A DNA stretch of 64,000 bases from an uncultured Gammaproteobacteria bacterium (GTDB taxonomy: Bacteria; Patescibacteriota; Patescibacteriia; 2-01-FULL-39-33), in the NCBI GenBank assembly GCA_964558935.1, contig CAZLFP010000003.1:39684-103683 (forward strand), read 5' to 3'. A program made the position numbers and the translations under genes. This document shows positions 4,037 to 62,739 of this stretch, one piece after another; the first letter of the stretch is position 1, and the number at the start of each line of letters is the position of its first letter. The notes under the pieces were generated by a model. It was not told where the DNA came from. It made no database searches and saw only the letters and a program-made list of their open reading frames with translations.

Positions 4037-4306
4037 ATGAAGAGTCAAAATTTAATTATTGGGTTGGTCATTTTGGTGGGTGTAGCCGGCTATCTAGCTT
4101 GGGATATTTACCAGATTCATCAGTCCATTAAATATGCCAGTTCTTTAGCTCCCGGTTTAAGGTTTTCCCAATCGGTTGGCAATGACAAAGTCAAGGCTGA
4201 AGTTATTGCCATGTTGGCAGATATGAAAGTGCATCGGTATGGAGAGTGGCCATTGGGACCGGTGGTTTTAAGCAGTGAGCGGGGCAATCCTTTTGCCGCT
4301 AAATAA
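4037..4306 (+). CDS. Small single-pass membrane protein in the pilus operon (PilP-like position), hypothetical
   Basis: 89 aa with an N-terminal TM (LIIGLVILVGVAGYLAW). Sits between the pilO-like gene and pilB. No recognisable motif. Confidence 0.4.
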   Translation: MKSQNLIIGLVILVGVAGYLAWDIYQIHQSIKYASSLAPGLRFSQSVGNDKVKAEVIAMLADMKVHRYGEWPLGPVVLSSERGNPFAAK

Positions 4307-4315
4307 TTTCCAGAC

Positions 4316-6043
4316 ATGACACAGACTTCCCAGCTTAAAATTAAAGATTATTTAATTGCTCAGAATTTAGTGACTGAGGAGAAATTGGCTGAATTGGTGT
4401 CTCCCGGCCAGAATATGGAAGAGACATTGGTGAAGAAAAAAAAGTTCTTTTCACATCAGGAATTCACGAATATTAAAAGTCAGGTTTTTAATCTGCCGGT
4501 GGCGGATTTGTCGGATTTGGACGTCGAATCCAGTGTCTTGAATATTTTGAGCCAAAAAGCGGCTCAGAACTACCAAGTCTTGATTTTCGAGCGTCAAGGC
4601 AACCAGATTAAGGTTGGCATGGTGGACCCCGGTAATTTCCAAGCCAAAGAAGCGATTGAGTTCTTAGCTGCCCAGCAAGGCTTGAAACCGGAGTATTATG
4701 TCATTTCCTTCCAGGATTTTGTTAAAGTGTTCCGGTCTTACAGTGGTTTCCAGGAAGAGATTGGCACGGCATTGGAGTCGGCGAAAGTTAAGTTTGAACA
4801 AAAGGTGGAAAAGCTAAAAACCGTCAGTGATGCCGATTTACAGTCAGTGGTTAAAAGTGCGCCCGTAGCTAAGATCGTGTCTGTTATTATCCAGCATGCA
4901 GTGGAGGGTCGAGCTTCAGATATCCACATTGAACCCTCGCGCAATGCCGGTCGGGTTAGATACCGGGTGGACGGGGTATTGCATACTTCTTTGGAAGTGC
5001 CAGGTTACTTGTATTCTTCCATCGTGTCTCGCATCAAAGTTTTGGCCAGTATGAAGCTGGATGAAACGCGTATTCCACAGGATGGCAGAATTAGAGTGAG
5101 CGTGGATGAGAGGGAAATTGATTTAAGAGTTTCTGTTTTACCAACTCTTGATCTGGAAAAGGTGGTTATGCGGGTGTTGGATACTTCAGCCGGAGTGCCG
5201 ACTTTGAAAGAATTAGGTTTTAGCGACCAGCAGATAGAGGTTATTGACCGGAATATGAAAAAGCCGTATGGCTTATTCTTAATGACCGGTCCGACCGGTT
5301 CCGGTAAAACCACCACTTTGTATTCGATCTTGAATAACCTGAATTCCGAGACGTTTAATATTACCACTCTGGAAGATCCGATAGAATACTATGTTCAAGG
5401 CGTTAACCAGTCTCAGATCAACCATACGGTTGGCTACACCTTTGCTTCCGGTTTGAGAGCGATTTTAAGGCAAGATCCGAATATTATCATGGTGGGTGAG
5501 ATTAGAGATAATGAAACGGCTGAGCTGGCCATTCATGCCGGTTTGACCGGTCACTTGGTTTTTTCCACTTTACACACCAACAGCGCTTGGGGAGCCGTGC
5601 CTCGGTTAATAGATATGAAGTGCGAACCATTCTTGTTGGCTTCCACCTTGAATTTGGTTATGGCTCAAAGATTGGTTAGAACCATTTGTCCGGACTGCAA
5701 GGTAGAGGACCGGGTTTCTGACAAGATCAGACAAAGATTGGACAATGAACTAGCAGCTATGCCACCGGAGATATTGGCCAAATTTAACGGTCAGCATACT
5801 TTTTACAAAGGCAAGGGTTGTCAGTCTTGTGCCAATTCCGGCTATCTGGGCAGAACGGTGGTGGCAGAGATCTTGGAGATTAACCGAGATTTGAAAGATT
5901 TGATTGCGGAAGGCAGTACGTCCAAGAAGCTGGATGAGATTCAAAAGGAGCAGAAATTCCTGACTCTGGTTCAAGATGGGGTCTTAAAAGCTTTGGAAGG
6001 CAAGACGACCGTCGAAGAAGTGGTTCGTGTATCTCAGCTATAA
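4316..6043 (+). CDS. pilB: Type IV pilus assembly (extension) ATPase PilB/GspE
   Basis: Canonical Walker A GPTGSGKTTT, Asp box EDPIEY, Walker B IIMVGEIRD, His box HLVFSTLHT and a C-terminal tetracysteine motif (CPDC...CQSC). N-terminal GSPII-type domain. Confidence 0.92.
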   Translation: MTQTSQLKIKDYLIAQNLVTEEKLAELVSPGQNMEETLVKKKKFFSHQEFTNIKSQVFNLPVADLSDLDVESSVLNILSQKAAQNYQVLIFERQGNQIKVGMVDPGNFQAKEAIEFLAAQQGLKPEYYVISFQDFVKVFRSYSGFQEEIGTALESAKVKFEQKVEKLKTVSDADLQSVVKSAPVAKIVSVIIQHAVEGRASDIHIEPSRNAGRVRYRVDGVLHTSLEVPGYLYSSIVSRIKVLASMKLDETRIPQDGRIRVSVDEREIDLRVSVLPTLDLEKVVMRVLDTSAGVPTLKELGFSDQQIEVIDRNMKKPYGLFLMTGPTGSGKTTTLYSILNNLNSETFNITTLEDPIEYYVQGVNQSQINHTVGYTFASGLRAILRQDPNIIMVGEIRDNETAELAIHAGLTGHLVFSTLHTNSAWGAVPRLIDMKCEPFLLASTLNLVMAQRLVRTICPDCKVEDRVSDKIRQRLDNELAAMPPEILAKFNGQHTFYKGKGCQSCANSGYLGRTVVAEILEINRDLKDLIAEGSTSKKLDEIQKEQKFLTLVQDGVLKALEGKTTVEEVVRVSQL

Positions 6044-6062
6044 TTAAATAATTTAGATATTT

Positions 6063-6449
6063 ATGCCGAAAAAAGACAAAATCGCGATCCTGATCATTGA
6101 AGATGATGTTTTTTTAGCTGATTTGTATCGCGCTAAGTTTGAAATGGAGGGATTTGATGTCTTCTTGGCCCATGATGGTGAAAAGGGGCTGGAAGCGACT
6201 AAGAAAAAAATGCCGGATGCCATTTTATTGGATCTGGTTTTACCGAAGATTGACGGCTTCAGTGTTTTGGATGAACTGAAGAAAAATGCTAAATTAAAAT
6301 CCATTCCGGTTATTTTGCTGACCAATTTGAGTCAAAAGGCGGATGTGGATAAGGGTATTGCCAAGGGAGCAGATGATTATTTAATTAAAGCTCATTTCAT
6401 GCCATCTGAGGTGGTAACCAAGATTATGAAGCTGGTTAAAAAGAGTTAG
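6063..6449 (+). CDS. Single-domain CheY-like response regulator (REC only)
   Basis: 128 aa with an acidic pocket (EDD), a phosphoacceptor Asp in LLDLVLPKIDGF and a conserved Lys (KAHF). No output domain. Confidence 0.85.
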   Translation: MPKKDKIAILIIEDDVFLADLYRAKFEMEGFDVFLAHDGEKGLEATKKKMPDAILLDLVLPKIDGFSVLDELKKNAKLKSIPVILLTNLSQKADVDKGIAKGADDYLIKAHFMPSEVVTKIMKLVKKS

Positions 6450-6450
6450 T

Positions 6451-7521
6451 ATGGACACTGCTCAAGCTTTGTCAATTCGTAAGATTTTGACCCAGGCGAT
6501 TGCCCGGGGCGCGGCTGATCTCCACTTTTCAGTCGGTAATCGTCCGACTTTAAGGATTAACGGAGATCTGGCCGGTATGGAAGACCAGGATATTATTGAC
6601 ATGGCTTTTATGGAACAGCTGGTGTCTTGGCTGTTGACCCCGGAACAGAGCAAGCTGTTAAAGCAGAATAGGGAGATTATCATAACGCATGATTTTGACA
6701 AACAGCTCAGGTTTAAAATTAATATTTTTTACCAACGGAATTTTTTGTCAGCCACTTTAAGGCATATTCCCTGGCAAGTACCGGTTTTAGATTCACTGAA
6801 TTTAAATCCTAAAGTCAAGGCACTGACCAATTTACAGAAAGGCTTGGTTATTGTAGCAGGTTCCTTCGGTTCCGGTCGGTCAACCACGGTGGCTGCCATG
6901 CTGGAAGAGATTAATTTAAGCCGTAAAGAGTATATTATTACCATTGAAGACCCGATTGAGTATTTGTATATCAACAAGCAGAGTATTATTGAACAAAGAC
7001 AGGTGGGCAGAGATGTTAGAACTATGGCTGATGCCATTAAGTACTTTGAAGAAGAGGATGGAGACATTTTGTATCTGGAAGGCATGGAAGATCCCAAGAT
7101 CATACCTCAGGTGTTGGAAATTGCCAGAGCTGGCGCTTTGGTTATAACCCATGTCACGGCTGCGACGGCAGCGGAAACCATATCGCGGATTATAGACAGT
7201 TTCACCAGTTTGGATCAGGAGAGGATCCGCGATTTACTGGCTTCAGCGCTCCAGGCGGTGGTGTGCCAGAAAGTCATACCCCAAATGGGCGGAGGAGTGA
7301 TGGTGATCCAGGAAATATTAATGGTGAATGACACTGTTAAGTCCATTATATTGGACGGTCGAACCAACCAGTTGGCCAGTGTCATTATGAATTCAGCTGA
7401 AGACGGCATGGTTTCATTTGACCAGATCTTAGCCAAATTAGTGGCAGAGCGGCGCATTTCTCTGGTTGATGCTTTGGACAATGCCACCGATCGCAAAAGA
7501 TTAGAAAAAATGATTAGATAA
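6451..7521 (+). CDS. pilT: PilT-like twitching-motility ATPase paralog with degenerate catalytic motifs
   Basis: PilT-size (356 aa) with a PilT-like layout and Asp box EDPIEY. Walker A reads GSFGSGRSTT (Lys replaced by Arg), Walker B reads LEGMED instead of VGEMRD, and the His box reads ALVITHVTA instead of HLVFGTLHT. Confidence 0.8.
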   Translation: MDTAQALSIRKILTQAIARGAADLHFSVGNRPTLRINGDLAGMEDQDIIDMAFMEQLVSWLLTPEQSKLLKQNREIIITHDFDKQLRFKINIFYQRNFLSATLRHIPWQVPVLDSLNLNPKVKALTNLQKGLVIVAGSFGSGRSTTVAAMLEEINLSRKEYIITIEDPIEYLYINKQSIIEQRQVGRDVRTMADAIKYFEEEDGDILYLEGMEDPKIIPQVLEIARAGALVITHVTAATAAETISRIIDSFTSLDQERIRDLLASALQAVVCQKVIPQMGGGVMVIQEILMVNDTVKSIILDGRTNQLASVIMNSAEDGMVSFDQILAKLVAERRISLVDALDNATDRKRLEKMIR

Positions 7522-7539
7522 GAAATAAGCTAAAAAAAT

Positions 7540-8748
7540 ATGCCGGTATTTGAATATAAGGCGAAAAATCAAGCGGGGGAAGTGCAAGAGGGCTTAGTGG
7601 AGGCTGCCAGTGAAGAAGCGGTGGCTGTTTTGTTGGGGGATAAGAATCTGTCTGTCGTATCCATTACAGCCAAGGAAGAGGCGGGTTTAGGTGGCATCAG
7701 TCTGACGTTAACCAAGGTTAAGACCAAGGATTTGGTGGTGTTCTTTCGTCAATTATCTGTCATGGTGGAAGCTAATCTGCCGATTGTCAAAGCCATGCGG
7801 ATTTTGACTCGTCAAACAGACAACCGGTATTTAAAAGCTGTAATAGCCAGTATTGCGGATGAAGTCGAAGGTGGTGCCAAACTGTCTCAGGCCATGTCCA
7901 CATATCCGGAAGTGTTTTCCAATTTTTACACCAATGTGGTGGCCTCCGGTGAAACTTCCGGTCGTTTAAGTGATGTTATGAATTATTTGGCTGATCAGGC
8001 TGAAAAGGATTATGATTTAAAATCCAAACTGCAGGGTGAAATGATTTATCCGGCTTTTATTTTTGGCATGTTGGGCATTGTTGGTTTTGTGATCATGACT
8101 TGGGTAATACCTCAAATTACGGAAATGGTGACTCAATCCGGAGCTGAACTCCCGATTGCCACTCAGATTCTAATTGCCGTATCCAAGTTTTTTGGCAGTT
8201 ATTGGTGGGCAGTGTTGTTGGGTTTGGTTGGTTTGGGTGGAGGTCTGTTTTACTTCGTTAAAAAAACCGAAGGTGGCAAACAAATGTTTGACCAGCTGAT
8301 TGTCAACATTCCCATTTTTGGTTCTGTTTTCAGAATTATTTACATTGTTAGGATTACCCAGTCTTTCCATACGCTGTTGGTCGGTGGTGTACCTGTCTCT
8401 CAAGCCTTGGAAACGGTTAAGGAGGTTGTGGATAACGTGGTCTACAAAGCAGTCATTGAACAAGCCATTCAAGATGTGGATGAGGGTACTTCTTTAGCTG
8501 AAAGTTTAATTGTCAGCAAATACATTCCCAACATGGTGGCTCAAATGATCAGTATTGGAGAAGAAACAGGTAAATTAGACCAAATTTTAGGTAGAATTTC
8601 TGATTTTTATACCCGAGAGATTAATAATTCACTTAAGAATTTAACCTCTTTGATCACACCAATCATTATGGTGATCTTAGCGGTTGCGATCGGTGGTTTT
8701 GTGGCAGCTGTGATTATGCCGATGTGGCAGTTATCTGCTGCTTTCTAG
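7540..8748 (+). CDS. pilC: Type IV pilus inner-membrane platform protein PilC/GspF
   Basis: 402 aa with two GspF repeats and three TM segments, typical of the PilC/GspF family. Follows the ATPase genes. Confidence 0.9.
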   Translation: MPVFEYKAKNQAGEVQEGLVEAASEEAVAVLLGDKNLSVVSITAKEEAGLGGISLTLTKVKTKDLVVFFRQLSVMVEANLPIVKAMRILTRQTDNRYLKAVIASIADEVEGGAKLSQAMSTYPEVFSNFYTNVVASGETSGRLSDVMNYLADQAEKDYDLKSKLQGEMIYPAFIFGMLGIVGFVIMTWVIPQITEMVTQSGAELPIATQILIAVSKFFGSYWWAVLLGLVGLGGGLFYFVKKTEGGKQMFDQLIVNIPIFGSVFRIIYIVRITQSFHTLLVGGVPVSQALETVKEVVDNVVYKAVIEQAIQDVDEGTSLAESLIVSKYIPNMVAQMISIGEETGKLDQILGRISDFYTREINNSLKNLTSLITPIIMVILAVAIGGFVAAVIMPMWQLSAAF

Positions 8749-13200: not shown

Positions 13201-15189
<1,989 letters not shown>

Positions 15190-15532
15190 AAAAACCACTG
15201 AAGCGATTCAGTGGCAGTATCAAGGCAAGCACTGCGTGTCATAATGCCGAGTTAGCCGGAGGCAGGCTCACTTAAGAGTGAGCTTGGTTGCCGGTTAGGT
15301 AGCTATGGGGGTAGAAGTGGTCTATCGGCTGACCAGCATTACTTGGCACCCAGTCATCACCGGGTCAAACACCGCAGCTGTTTGCCATCGCAAACAGGCT
15401 CAACCGAGCATTAATACTTACCTTGACTTAACAACCATAACACAGGCGTGTTCTGGGGTCAAGCTAACCCCTTGCCATTTTGAGGTCAACCATGCTAAAA
15501 TAGGCCATAGATTGCTGAAACCAACATTTACT
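15190..15532 (+). ncRNA. Candidate structured non-coding RNA or leader of unknown class. Strand uncertain.
   Basis: A 343-nt non-coding gap with several perfect hairpins: 15198-15216, a nested extended helix at 15250-15300, an 8-bp stem at 15378-15397 and GGGGT-N7-ACCCC at 15455-15471. The track ORF 15305..15826 is an artefactual upstream extension of gatC. Confidence 0.3.
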
Positions 15533-15826
15533 ATGCAGTTAACCCAAGAACAAGTTGAGCACATAGCTCAGCTAGCCAGATTAAACTTAACTGACCAAGA
15601 AAAGATTACTTACCAACAAGAGTTATCTTCCATTTTGGATTATGTGGATAAATTGCAGGCTGTTGATACAACCAATGTTCAAGAGACTTCACAAGTGACC
15701 GGTTTACAGAATGTAACCAGATCTGATACAGTGATTGACCAAGGATTGAACGAACAACTGTTGGAACAAGCGCCTCAGGCCAAGCATGGCTATTATGTTA
15801 TCCCTAAGATTTTTGACAACAAGTAA
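15533..15826 (+). CDS. gatC: Glu-tRNA(Gln)/Asp-tRNA(Asn) amidotransferase subunit C
   Basis: 97 aa starting MQLTQEQVEHIAQLARLNLTDQEK, the typical GatC N-terminus, immediately upstream of gatA. The track ORF start at 15305 is rejected. Confidence 0.85.
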   Translation: MQLTQEQVEHIAQLARLNLTDQEKITYQQELSSILDYVDKLQAVDTTNVQETSQVTGLQNVTRSDTVIDQGLNEQLLEQAPQAKHGYYVIPKIFDNK

Positions 15827-15828
15827 AC

Positions 15829-17292
15829 ATGGATTTACACCAATTATCTGTCCTTCAAGCTTTTGAAGGCTTAAGAGATAAACAATTTACCGCTCAGGAC
15901 TTAACCCAAGCCAGTTTAGATCAAATTGCCCGTTTGGATGAGCAAGTCAAAGCCTATATCACCGTCACTTCAGATTTGGCTTTGCAGACGGCCAAAGAAG
16001 TGGACGCAAAAATTGCTGCCGGGGATGAATTGCCTCCCTTGGCCGGTATTCCGGTTGGCATTAAAGATGTTTTTTGCACACAAGGTGTGACCAGTACAGC
16101 CGGTTCTAAGATTTTGGAACATTACGTACCGGCTCAAAATGCTACCGCTGTGGCTAAATTGGTGGCTAACCAGGCAGTGATGGTGGGTAAAACAAATATG
16201 GATGAATTTGCCATGGGTGGTTCGACTGAGAATTCCGGTTTTTTTCCAACCAAGAATCCGTGGGATTTGGACCGGGTACCGGGCGGCAGTTCGGGTGGTA
16301 GTGCAGCAGCTGTGGCGGCTTGCATGTGTCAGTATGCTTTGGGCACAGACACCGGTGGTTCTATTCGTCAGCCGGCTGCTTTTTGCGGTATTGCTGGATT
16401 GAAAGTTTCCTATGGTCGAGTTTCCAGGAGTAATGTGATGGCAATGGCTTCTTCCCTGGATACCATTGGACCCATGGCCAGGCGAGTGGAAGATCTGGCC
16501 GTGGTTTTGTCTCAAATTGCGGGTTTGGATCCTCAAGATGCGACCACCCCTGATGTGGCTGTACCGGATTATACTCAGTTTTTAAATCAAGATATTACCG
16601 GTCTGAAAATCGGTCTGCCCAAGGAGTATTTTATTGAAGGTATGGATCCGGAAGTCAGACAGGTTGTTTTGGACGCTGCCAAACAACTGGAAGCCATGGG
16701 AGCTCAAGTTGTGGACATTTCTCTACCGCACACTGATTTGGCTGTTGCCGTGTATTATATCCTGGTACCGTCAGAAGTTAGTTCCAATTTGGCCAGATAT
16801 GATGGTATACGATATGGTTTGTCAGACAGAGAGAGTGGCAATTTGGCAGATATTTATCTCAAGAATCGTTCCTTAGGCTTGGGCAAGGAAGTTAAAAGAC
16901 GGATTATGATCGGCAGTTATGCTTTGTCGGCCGGCTACTATGATGCCTATTACAAAAAAGCCATGCAAGTCAGAACTCTGGTTAAACAAGATTTTGACCG
17001 AGCGTTTGAACAAGTGGATGCCATTTTAACACCGGTGGCTCCCACCCCGGCCTTTAAATTGGGTGAGAACATCAATGATCCACTGAAGATGTATCTGGCC
17101 GATGTCTTTACCATTCCTGCTTCTTTGGCCGGTATCTGTGGTTTGTCTTTACCGGCTGGCCGAGTTAATAATCTACCGGTCGGTATTCAGTTGCTGGGCA
17201 AGAGAATGGATGAAGCCATGGTATTGAGAATTGGCCATCAGTATGAGCAAGCCACAGACTGGCATCTTAAACAACCAGATTTAATTCAATAA
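15829..17292 (+). CDS. gatA: Glu-tRNA(Gln)/Asp-tRNA(Asn) amidotransferase subunit A (amidase signature family)
   Basis: Amidase signature GGSSGGSAAAVAA, a Ser-cisSer-Lys catalytic context, 487 aa, located after gatC. Confidence 0.95.
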   Translation: MDLHQLSVLQAFEGLRDKQFTAQDLTQASLDQIARLDEQVKAYITVTSDLALQTAKEVDAKIAAGDELPPLAGIPVGIKDVFCTQGVTSTAGSKILEHYVPAQNATAVAKLVANQAVMVGKTNMDEFAMGGSTENSGFFPTKNPWDLDRVPGGSSGGSAAAVAACMCQYALGTDTGGSIRQPAAFCGIAGLKVSYGRVSRSNVMAMASSLDTIGPMARRVEDLAVVLSQIAGLDPQDATTPDVAVPDYTQFLNQDITGLKIGLPKEYFIEGMDPEVRQVVLDAAKQLEAMGAQVVDISLPHTDLAVAVYYILVPSEVSSNLARYDGIRYGLSDRESGNLADIYLKNRSLGLGKEVKRRIMIGSYALSAGYYDAYYKKAMQVRTLVKQDFDRAFEQVDAILTPVAPTPAFKLGENINDPLKMYLADVFTIPASLAGICGLSLPAGRVNNLPVGIQLLGKRMDEAMVLRIGHQYEQATDWHLKQPDLIQ

Positions 17293-17973: not shown

Positions 17974-18002
17974 TGGACAAAAAGCTCCATTTGTGGTAAA
18001 AT
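17974..18002 (+). promoter_or_regulatory. Sigma70-like promoter for tRNA-Ser (TGGACA-N17-TAAAAT with an upstream TG)
   Basis: -35 TGGACA at 17974-17979 and -10 TAAAAT at 17997-18002, 14 nt upstream of the tRNA 5' end. Confidence 0.45.
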
Positions 18003-22448: not shown

Positions 22449-22477
22449 TTGACAAGGTTGAGATTATTTGCTAAAAT
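22449..22477 (+). promoter_or_regulatory. Consensus sigma70 promoter (TTGACA-N17-TAAAAT) for tRNA-Asn
   Basis: Perfect -35 TTGACA at 22449-22454, a 17-nt spacer and -10 TAAAAT at 22472-22477. Confidence 0.5.
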
Positions 22478-61968: not shown

Positions 61969-62358
61969 ATGTATACAGACAAGGTTTTAGATCATTTTCA
62001 CCATCCCAGGAACCAGGGTCGCATTCAAGCAGCAGATGGCATTGGTCAGGTAGGCAATCCGGTGTGCGGTGATGTGATGAAAATATATATTAAGGTAAAA
62101 GACCAGCCAGAGCCGGTTATTCAGGACATTAAATTTGAAACTTTGGGTTGTGGAGCAGCCATTGCCACGTCCTCCATGCTCACAGAGATGGTCAAAGGAC
62201 AAACCATTCAGCAGGCTCTGAAGATCAGTAAAACACAAATTGCTCAAGAGTTGGGTGGGTTACCGCCAGCCAAGTTGCATTGCTCGGTACTGGCTCACGA
62301 TGCCCTGCGTGAAGCCATTTTGGATTACCAGTCAAAAAATAATTATAAATATGCCTAA
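61969..62358 (+). CDS. iscU: Fe-S cluster assembly scaffold IscU/NifU-like
   Basis: The three conserved Cys (NPVCGDVM, LGCGAAIA, KLHCSVLAHDAL). 129 aa. Confidence 0.9.
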   Translation: MYTDKVLDHFHHPRNQGRIQAADGIGQVGNPVCGDVMKIYIKVKDQPEPVIQDIKFETLGCGAAIATSSMLTEMVKGQTIQQALKISKTQIAQELGGLPPAKLHCSVLAHDALREAILDYQSKNNYKYA

Positions 62359-62506
62359 ACAAACAACAGTACACAGGCAAGAGTGCGAAATTTATTCACG
62401 AGTTGTCGGCTATTTACGGCCAACCCAGAGCTGGAATGCCGGTAAACAGGCTGAATTTCATGATCGCAGTGTGTACCAGGCCAAAACCACAACCAATCAT
62501 AAATAA
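62351..62506 (+). CDS. 51-aa ORF resembling the extreme C-terminal glycyl-radical segment of the anaerobic ribonucleotide reductase NrdD (candidate spare-part protein or gene remnant)
   Basis: MPKQTTVHRQECEIYSRVVGYLRPTQSWNAGKQAEFHDRSVYQ matches the RVxGYL...NxGKxxE...R glycyl-radical tail of NrdD. Lacks the Zn ribbon and catalytic body. Overlaps the iscU stop by 8 nt. Track ORF 62240..62506 trimmed to the ATG at 62351. Confidence 0.5.
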   Translation: MPKQTTVHRQECEIYSRVVGYLRPTQSWNAGKQAEFHDRSVYQAKTTTNHK

Positions 62507-62511
62507 ATTCT

Positions 62512-62739
62512 ATGGAAGATAAGATTAAAGCAGCTTTAGATCAACTAAGGCCTCATTTGCAAATGGACGGGGGAGATGTAGACTTTGTATCTTTTGATCA
62601 AGAGCAAGGTATTTTAAAATTAAAATTGCAAGGCGCTTGTCAAGGCTGTCCCATGTCTCAGATTACCTTGCAGGAAGGCATTGGCAAAGTTTTAAAACAA
62701 GACATGCCTGAGATTAAACAAGTCATAGCTGTCACTTAA
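62512..62739 (+). CDS. NifU-like (Nfu-type) Fe-S cluster carrier domain protein
   Basis: 75 aa with a CxxC motif (GACQGCPMS) and a typical Nfu C-terminal domain (LRPHLQMDGGDVDFVSF). Confidence 0.8.
   Translation: MEDKIKAALDQLRPHLQMDGGDVDFVSFDQEQGILKLKLQGACQGCPMSQITLQEGIGKVLKQDMPEIKQVIAVT

Follow-up and report, generated by a model that had tools for sequence, protein, structure and literature searches.

A candidate structured RNA gene, opposite in strand to its neighbours, in the ligA-gatC gap of a Patescibacteria genome

The orphan large structured non-coding RNAs raiA, OLE, ROOL and GOLLD, which are defined by many covarying homologues, are stand-alone, multi-branched and highly structured molecules of unknown function, with a promoter and a terminator of their own and a G+C content above that of their surroundings. 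6S RNA (RF00013) is also the product of a stand-alone gene, about 200 nt long and with paired 5' and 3' ends. Structured RNA lies directly upstream of gatC in the T-box leaders of gatCAB, a form of control reportedly present in Clostridium acetobutylicum. In Patescibacteria (CPR), whose genomes of about 1 Mb are almost without spare DNA, we know of very few non-coding RNAs beyond rRNA, tRNA, RNase P RNA, SRP RNA and tmRNA. As for RNase P RNA, 10 of 35 closed CPR genomes have none at default thresholds, forms without P12-P18 occur, and diverged ones were recovered by RF00010 once the thresholds were lowered (PMC8172020). A search of the literature on CPR non-coding RNAs, 6S RNA and gatC motifs returned nothing relevant to the locus described here.

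This locus, the gap between ligA and gatC in a CPR genome, shares some features with each of these systems. As in raiA, OLE, ROOL and GOLLD, its RNA would be stand-alone, multi-branched and highly structured, with a predicted promoter and terminator and a G+C content higher than that of its surroundings, but it is represented by one sequence and matches no Rfam model. With 6S RNA it would share a length of about 200 nt, paired ends and a stand-alone gene; with the RNase P RNAs of CPR bacteria, which can lose helices and be missed by default Rfam thresholds, it shares the group of organisms. Like the gatCAB T-box leaders, the element is located directly upstream of gatC; unlike them, it has its signals on the opposite strand and the gatC promoter in between. 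On balance the evidence leans, if not heavily, towards a stand-alone non-coding RNA gene of about 240 nt, which would be read from the minus strand, against the direction of ligA and gatC. We infer the strand, the ends and the expression of this RNA from signals in the DNA.

The window, by which we mean the whole 64-kb stretch of DNA that was analysed, belongs to a 124.6-kb contig of Patescibacteria origin. In homologue searches the best identity was 67% for LigA and 71% for GatA, to metagenome-assembled genomes of Buchanan-, Komeili-, Kuenen- and Falkowbacteria type, labels that on the LigA matches we take to denote ABY1-type Patescibacteria; the 90% cluster of LigA consists of a single sequence, that of the window itself, and the lineage is a singleton. 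The left neighbour of the gap is ligA (NAD-dependent DNA ligase, 660 aa; plus strand, 13207-15189, with the stop codon TAA at 15187-15189), an ORF whose homologues carry DNA-ligase Pfam domains, and which is convergent with the predicted RNA gene. The right neighbour is gatC (97 aa; plus strand, 15533-15826). Homologous 97-aa GatC proteins begin with MKLS.EVEHIA..., which places the true start at the ATG at 15533, so that the longer open reading frame 15305-15826 is, as had been proposed, gatC read through from upstream. The gap (15190-15532) measures 343 nt and is the longest in the window, where genes cover 96.6% of the sequence and gaps have a median length of 16 nt, the second longest reaching 185 nt; the earlier note was right to single it out as unusually long. 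Its G+C content is 51%, versus 41.7% for the window. Two other apparent gaps of the window are filled by small ORFs. This one contains no credible ORF of 20 aa or more, and a blastx comparison with all the ORFs of the related loci described below recovered no protein remnant from it, in agreement with its description as non-coding.

The stability of the folded gap exceeds what is expected by chance. Whole-gap folding gives z = -4.6 on the plus and -4.3 on the minus strand, and the predicted minus-strand transcript gives z = -5.0 (200 shuffles). When 240-nt segments from the entire window were folded for either strand, each against only 16 shuffles and hence with noisy z values, the segment 15190-15429 ranked first of 534 tests (z = -7.2 on the minus and -4.3 on the plus strand; background mean -0.52, sd 1.26), which upholds the claim of an exceptionally structured region. 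The four hairpins that had been listed by eye all exist, though not every detail of them stands. CTGTTTGC-CATC-GCAAACAG at 15378-15397 and GGGGT-CAAGCTA-ACCCC at 15455-15471 are present as described. The first hairpin is also real, CCACTGAA-GCGA-TTCAGTGG at 15195-15214, but its coordinates had been placed about 3 nt off, and its loop has 4 nt rather than 6. Of the nested extended helix, the component sequences are all present (GCTCAC-TTAAGA-GTGAGC at 15266-15283, enclosed by AGTTAGCCGG at 15250-15259 and CCGGTTAGGT at 15291-15300), but the helix, which requires two G.U pairs possible only on the plus strand, is not used in the minimum free energy (MFE) fold of either strand.

Stability by itself does not tell which strand is read. 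Over 15216-15432 the folding energies are -86.5 kcal/mol for the minus and -85.3 kcal/mol for the plus strand, with 7 and 8 G.U pairs respectively, and both comparisons are indecisive. An alternative to be considered is a structured element on the plus strand, co-directional with its neighbours: a long ligA 3' UTR with a stabilising effect on the mRNA, or else a riboswitch, a T-box-like element or an attenuator in a leader that regulates gatCA. The plus-strand fold is nearly as stable (z of about -4.1 to -4.6), the 47 protein genes of the first 52 kb or so all lie on the plus strand, as do both tRNA genes, and the AGUUAGCCGG/CCGGUUAGGU helix has two G.U pairs valid on that strand only. The T-box control reported for gatCAB in Clostridium acetobutylicum also counts for a leader. 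The AGUUAGCCGG/CCGGUUAGGU helix, however, lies outside the plus-strand MFE fold, and the signals of transcription point in the other direction.

On the minus strand, the hairpin next to ligA reads as a putative intrinsic terminator (15188-15215), formed by GCCACUGAA-UCGC-UUCAGUGGU (15215..15194) and followed by a U7 tract (15194..15188) that overlaps the final two bases of the ligA stop codon. Its stem has 9 bp with 4 G-C pairs, its tail is TTTTTTT, and its strength puts it in the top three of the terminator-like sites between 1 and 20 kb; across the window, the other terminators of such quality are found at gene ends and match the strand of the gene (9326, 17944, 22596 and 46628 on the plus strand, 59651 on the minus strand). 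On the plus strand the same hairpin is followed by CAGTATC, with no T-tract. At the other end of the structure there is a candidate sigma-70-type promoter on the minus strand (15434-15462), with a -35 box TTGACC (15462-15457), a 17-nt spacer and a TG-extended -10 box TGtTATGGT (-10 at 15439-15434); TG-extended promoter-like sites of this kind occur only twice on the minus strand in 64 kb. Both the promoter and the terminator of the putative RNA gene are matches to consensus. They constitute the only pair of such signals that brackets the structure. Collinear and in register with them is the closing stem, P1, whose first base coincides with the point, about 15427, at which transcription is predicted to begin. 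Promoter, stem and terminator would thereby delimit a unit of about 240 nt on the minus strand, which diverges from gatC and converges with ligA.

A second predicted promoter, on the plus strand at 15472-15501 (-35 TTGCCA, 18-nt spacer, TG-extended -10 TGcTAAAAT), is located between the structure and gatC, about 25 nt upstream of the ATG, and would leave gatC a 5' UTR of about 25 nt. The same TGnTAAAAT type of extended -10 precedes tRNA-Ser and tRNA-Asn, the arrangement CTTGCn...TGnTAAAAT recurs before gatC in three related loci (L004, L060 and L061), and the gatC promoter is kept in relatives that do not have the element. Since this promoter is downstream of the structure, a role of the element as leader of gatCA is improbable. 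The same conclusion is favoured by the lack of any T-box, riboswitch or other leader family at E<=10 on either strand, by the fact that no plus-strand terminator or anti-terminator follows the structure before gatC, and by the missing U-tract, on the plus strand, behind the hairpin next to ligA. The earlier note, in which the region was read on the plus strand, had suggested a long regulatory leader for gatCA; this is disfavoured, and we regard a plus-strand element of any of these kinds as quite unlikely.

The promoters of gatC and of the putative RNA gene are divergent, with their -35 boxes only 9 nt apart (15463-15471). The inverted repeat GGGGT-N7-ACCCC (15455-15471) covers the -35 box of the RNA promoter and abuts that of gatC. 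A role as operator is possible, and so is a chance occurrence: the pattern is unique in the window, but at least one match arose in 14 of 100 shuffled sequences. If it is an operator, its position over both -35 boxes could couple the two promoters, although this is speculative.

The predicted fold of the minus-strand RNA is the same whether calculated as MFE or as centroid structure, with a mean pair probability of 0.76 to 0.99 for each helix. From one strand of the closing stem to the other, the structured body comprises about 209 nt (15219-15427, minus strand). P1 (15427-15415 / 15231-15219) has 13 bp, and its 3' strand ends just before the terminator; three of its pairs are G.U and valid on the minus strand only, as they would become A.C mismatches on the plus strand. 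It is followed by hairpin A (15409-15398; 4 bp, GGUU loop), hairpin B (15397-15378; 8 bp, GAUG loop) and helix C (15377-15368 / 15240-15232), and these, together with P1, form a four-way junction in which A, B, C and the 3' strand of P1 adjoin one another directly, without an unpaired base in between. Helix C encloses hairpin D (15365-15348; CCCGGU/ACUGGG, with a GAUG loop) and helix E (15342-15326 / 15258-15241; 16 bp). The apical part, beyond helix E, consists of a small hairpin (15324-15312), an unpaired C-rich stretch of 19 nt (15311-15293) and a longer hairpin (15292-15261) of 4+7 bp, the 7-bp stem being perfect and closed by a CUUA loop. The only unpaired stretches of the fold are UUAAU, GCCAA, ACCAA and the C-rich 19-mer, of which no two are complementary. 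A tertiary contact between the GGUU loop of hairpin A and two AACC sites in unpaired regions is possible on the basis of their sequences.

We considered whether an RNA of this kind belongs to a described family. At the gathering score, a search of the whole window with Rfam produced no match for the gap; at E<=10, on segments of 521 and 215 nt and on both strands, the only matches were to FourU and isrB, both at chance level (that of FourU, on the terminator hairpin, scored 21.6 bits against a gathering score of 60), so that the Rfam comparison proposed earlier identifies no family. The genes rnpB, ffs, ssrA and ssrS were all searched for in the 64-kb window and none was found. A T-box or riboswitch leader is unlikely, in view of the strand signals, the gatC promoter downstream of the structure and the missing plus-strand terminator or anti-terminator mentioned above, and no cis-regulatory family appeared beyond the chance match to FourU. 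tmRNA was rejected because ARAGORN reports only two tRNAs in the window and the Rfam tmRNA models are silent. A 6S-like RNA, another of the possibilities raised in the earlier note, is contradicted by the architecture, a four-way junction with a branched arm rather than a rod with a central bubble, and by the silence of RF00013 at E<=10. As regards SRP RNA, the closing stem and the two small hairpins beside a long arm recall, to our eye, the Alu end of the long SRP RNAs, and the ACCAA/C internal loop (5' ACCAA, 3' C; 15288-15284 / 15265) presumably recalls the asymmetric loop of SRP helix 8; but the resemblance is to that asymmetric loop only, the GGAAGCAGC-type motif of helix 8, with its GNAR tetraloop and symmetric loop, is absent, and no SRP model matches at E<=10. 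RNase P RNA was likewise rejected. Bacterial RNase P RNA typically has 330-400 nt, and at about 210 nt the gap RNA is too short; neither GGAAAGUCC of CR-I nor ACAGAAnCCGGCUUA of CR-V is present on either strand; RF00010 has no match, either at the gathering score or at E<=10 (521 and 215 nt); and the P4 pseudoknot is ruled out, as the fold does not offer two free strands able to pair.

The exclusion of RNase P RNA, tmRNA and SRP RNA, which had been reached by eye, is thus confirmed by Rfam and ARAGORN. The housekeeping RNAs nevertheless merit a second consideration, in that a strongly diverged RNase P, 6S or SRP RNA might be missed by the Rfam models. Such misses are documented for RNase P in CPR bacteria (PMC8172020), for which reason the possibility of a diverged RNase P RNA was checked by hand, and none of the four housekeeping RNA genes was located elsewhere in the window. 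Against this explanation, the models for RNase P RNA (RF00010), 6S RNA (RF00013), SRP RNA and tmRNA remain silent at E<=10 even on the 215-nt segment, and the structural arguments just given (no possible P4 and insufficient length, no SRP GNAR tetraloop or symmetric loop, no 6S rod, no tmRNA detected by ARAGORN) all apply; we therefore hold it to be very improbable. Two further candidates were rejected. The terminal helix, with 3 G.U in 13 pairs, is not the near-perfect inverted repeat of a MITE or REP-like element, and the gap sequence has no second copy within the 64-kb window, half of its contig, or in the 419 kb (window and related loci) to which a covariance model was applied, which also argues against an element of this type. 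An anti-Shine-Dalgarno seed in the C-rich loop was dismissed, as a Shine-Dalgarno-like motif is found at only 4 of 61 gene starts.

We looked for homologues of the gap in related loci, 50 of them reached through LigA in genomes and metagenomes and 14 through contig look-ups, for a total of approximately 0.5 Mb. No sequence similar to the gap was recovered from them: blastn and nhmmer searches with the gap returned nothing from the first 18 loci, and a covariance model built from the one sequence of the C domain retrieved nothing but that domain from 47 sources (the window and related loci, 419 kb). Phage and plasmid collections contained no match either, and no homologue with compensatory changes came to light in the related loci or in these collections. 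The nearest relative is only 65-70% identical at the protein level, so that a failure to detect conservation is weak evidence. In most relatives only 58-150 nt precede gatC and the element is absent, which implies that the RNA is dispensable or replaceable in the clade. What occupies the spacer differs by lineage: a methyltransferase gene in L007 and L028, a different RNA in L004 and L061, and nothing in many.

The earlier note had stated that its proposal of a structured RNA would be refuted by finding no Rfam match and no conservation or covariation in related genomes; by its own rule, the proposal would fail. A rival explanation takes the gap as non-functional DNA, a decaying insert or the remnant of a lost gene, in which hairpins and promoter-like and terminator-like sites are incidental or left over. 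The sequence is conserved in no relative, most of the spacers between ligA and gatC or otherwise upstream of gatC do not contain the element, their content varies between lineages, and the spacer of L004 holds a probable orphaned promoter. Opposed to this are the fold, the most stable of 534 tests, the absence of any coding trace or repetition, and the exact register of promoter, closing stem and terminator; in addition, a coverage of 96.6% and a median gap of 16 nt point to strong deletion pressure against useless DNA, which counts against a remnant. We consider non-functional DNA unlikely. The gene signals, together with an RNA found at the same position in relatives, argue against the failure of the proposal, and among the three options originally offered a lineage-specific sRNA fits best.

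In three lineages the spacer upstream of gatC is large and holds a different predicted RNA gene, also on the minus strand: L004 (7231-7468, with L024, L025 and L032), L061 (5893-6177) and L060 (2306-2590). The RNAs of L004, L060 and L061 are mutually homologous (nhmmer E of 1e-55 to 1e-98) and have a conserved core, CUUUGC, GCCCGUAnnUUUCGGGAGCGG and CCGCnAAAAAGsCC, a pattern restricted to L004, L024, L025, L032, L060 and L061; a pattern scan of viral contigs did not find the core motif, and no Rfam family was found in these RNAs. In each, transcription is predicted to begin with the first nucleotide of a 14-16-bp closing stem. When helices of L004 and L061 were compared, compensatory changes appeared and every pair was intact. 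In the MAFFT alignment of these RNAs hairpin B and helix C are out of register. The RNAs have G.U pairs valid on the minus strand only, and together with the covariation these clearly favour that strand; moreover, in L060 no plus-strand gene precedes the element, and both observations weigh further against a plus-strand element in the gap. A weak nhmmer match in L021 and L022 (E = 0.053) was discarded as merely an A-rich stretch plus a terminator.

The likeness between these RNAs and the one predicted in the gap is one of position and architecture. They occupy the same slot and point the same way, their promoter back-to-back with the conserved one of gatC and with 6-9 nt between the -35 boxes of gatC and RNA (the junctions read GCAAG-8 nt-TTGACC in the window, GCAAG-6 nt-TTGACG in L061 and L060, and GCAAG-6 nt-TTTACA in L004). 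In all four the closing stem starts 6-8 nt past the -10 box. Sizes are comparable (232-278 nt in the relatives, about 240 nt for the gap RNA), the predicted transcripts open with the closing stem and end in a U7 tract, and the branching order of the MFE folds is similar: P1, [A][B][C], with C enclosing D, whose 5' strand reads CCCG, and then E. The weighted tree-edit distance between the fold of the window and those of the relatives was matched by 0-2% of the shuffled sequences of the relatives, a lenient null, in that shuffling already lowers the degree of structure; the unweighted distance was not significant, with 6-26% of the shuffles equally close.

At the level of sequence the likeness vanishes. 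Pairwise local alignments of the gap RNA with the RNAs of the relatives score at the shuffle mean, the nhmmer profile of the relatives finds no match in the window, and the covariance model of the C domain of the window gives only noise (5.8 bits) when applied to the relatives with filters off. The core of the relatives (CUUUGC, GCCCGUAnnUUUCGGGAGCGG, CCGCnAAAAAGsCC) is missing from the gap RNA. There are also differences of structure: the closing stem doubles as terminator in the relatives, whereas the gap RNA would have a separate terminator hairpin; arm A is long in the relatives and a 4-bp hairpin in the gap RNA; and the strand that joins E to C is A-rich and 15-37 nt long in the relatives, while the gap RNA has none. 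As the direct tests of homology fail, we treat the RNA of the relatives as a positional and architectural analogue, a common origin being unproven. A bolder proposition would be that the gap RNA and the RNAs of L004, L060 and L061 are fast-evolving orthologues, members of one undescribed class of ABY1-type Patescibacteria RNAs of about 210-280 nt, with a four-way junction and a position divergent from the gatCAB promoter, which serve as RNA-protein scaffold and might have a link with tRNA-dependent amidation or be co-regulated with gatCAB. We put this forward only tentatively, and on present evidence would call it doubtful.

These results can be assembled in the following manner. A sigma-70-type promoter with an extended -10, placed back-to-back with that of gatC, would start transcription of the gap RNA at about 15427, and transcription would stop at the hairpin 15215..15194 and its U7 tract, at the ligA stop codon. 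The 5' end of the transcript would then pair with the sequence just before the terminator to form the 13-bp closing stem; this would open into the four-way junction, with two hairpins and a third helix, the latter bearing the CCCG hairpin, the 16-bp helix and the apical domain with its 19-nt unpaired C-rich stretch. The RNA overlaps no mRNA beyond the bases of the ligA stop codon under the U7 tract. A compact, multi-branched and almost fully paired shape and the scarcity of Shine-Dalgarno targets suggest a scaffold rather than a leader or an antisense RNA, and our guess, a weak inference, is that the RNA works in trans, by binding protein or serving as a scaffold. In kind, it would be a bacterial stand-alone structured sRNA not assignable to any described family; we regard it as a probable lineage-specific sRNA gene, known from one genome.

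As it consists of one sequence, the gap RNA is a lead and not a discovery. There is a lesson in it for annotation, which is to read this element on the strand that its neighbours do not use, and the RNA family of the relatives is a useful by-product of the search. If the reading of the gap as a minus-strand gene is true, an independently transcribed and very stably folded RNA of 240 nt might well prove to be a new functional RNA, and its candidacy is strengthened by the conserved RNA that relatives have at the same promoter-sharing site. It would offer a starting point for tracing, in bacteria not amenable to culture, the RNA biology peculiar to a lineage.

Two seeming intergenic gaps of the window are occupied by small ORFs, namely one of 89 aa with a hydrophobic N-terminus (4037-4306), one of about 51 aa (about 62352-62506), and one of 75 aa (62512-62739), which by eye looked NifU-like. 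This leaves the gap between ligA and gatC as the window's one large tRNA-free non-coding stretch. An extended -10 promoter of the form TGnTAAAAT lies at 15472-15501, upstream of gatC, and the same form is found at 17974-18002, upstream of tRNA-Ser, and at 22449-22477, upstream of tRNA-Asn; it may represent the typical strong promoter of this organism. The inverted repeat GGGGT-N7-ACCCC at 15455-15471 covers the -35 box of the divergent promoter of the predicted RNA gene in the gap and adjoins the -35 box of gatC, and could be an operator shared by both promoters; it occurs once in the window, although at least one match was present in 14 of 100 shuffles. Across the whole window a Shine-Dalgarno-like motif precedes only 4 of 61 gene starts (starts include 13207, 15533 and 15829). 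Most genes here thus seem to be translated from A/T-rich leaders by SD-independent initiation.

The gatCA neighbourhood was also compared among related Patescibacteria loci. Only 2 nt separate gatC from gatA in the window (15826-15829), versus 132-183 nt in several relatives (L004:7860-8004, L060:2983-3119, L019:5078-5261). The gatCA-thioredoxin cluster is followed by tRNA-Ser in the window, L002, L004 and L005. Downstream of the cluster, L057 (6242-7900) and L058 (6339-7901) carry serine recombinase genes with Resolvase/Recombinase Pfam domains, and L056 has a 2.3-kb stretch without a called gene (5631-7946); an integrated element may be present here.

The minus strand of L004 has a promoter that fits the consensus perfectly, TTGACA-17-TGnTATAAT (7185-7213), but all that it leads into is a bidirectional terminator (7109-7155), which follows after about 25 nt. 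The same promoter in L060 (2205-2233, minus strand) lies upstream of, and drives, a 443-aa gene; the L004 copy is probably orphaned, or else the source of a very small RNA.

Upstream of gatC and opposite to it in direction, related Patescibacteria encode a conserved RNA of 232-278 nt on the minus strand (L004:7231-7468, L061:5893-6177, L060:2306-2590; also in L024, L025 and L032). Its conserved cores include GCCCGUAnnUUUCGGGAGCGG, its closing stem also serves as a terminator, and compensatory changes are seen between lineages. This gatC-divergent RNA has no match among Rfam families and is by itself a candidate for a novel family of ncRNAs.
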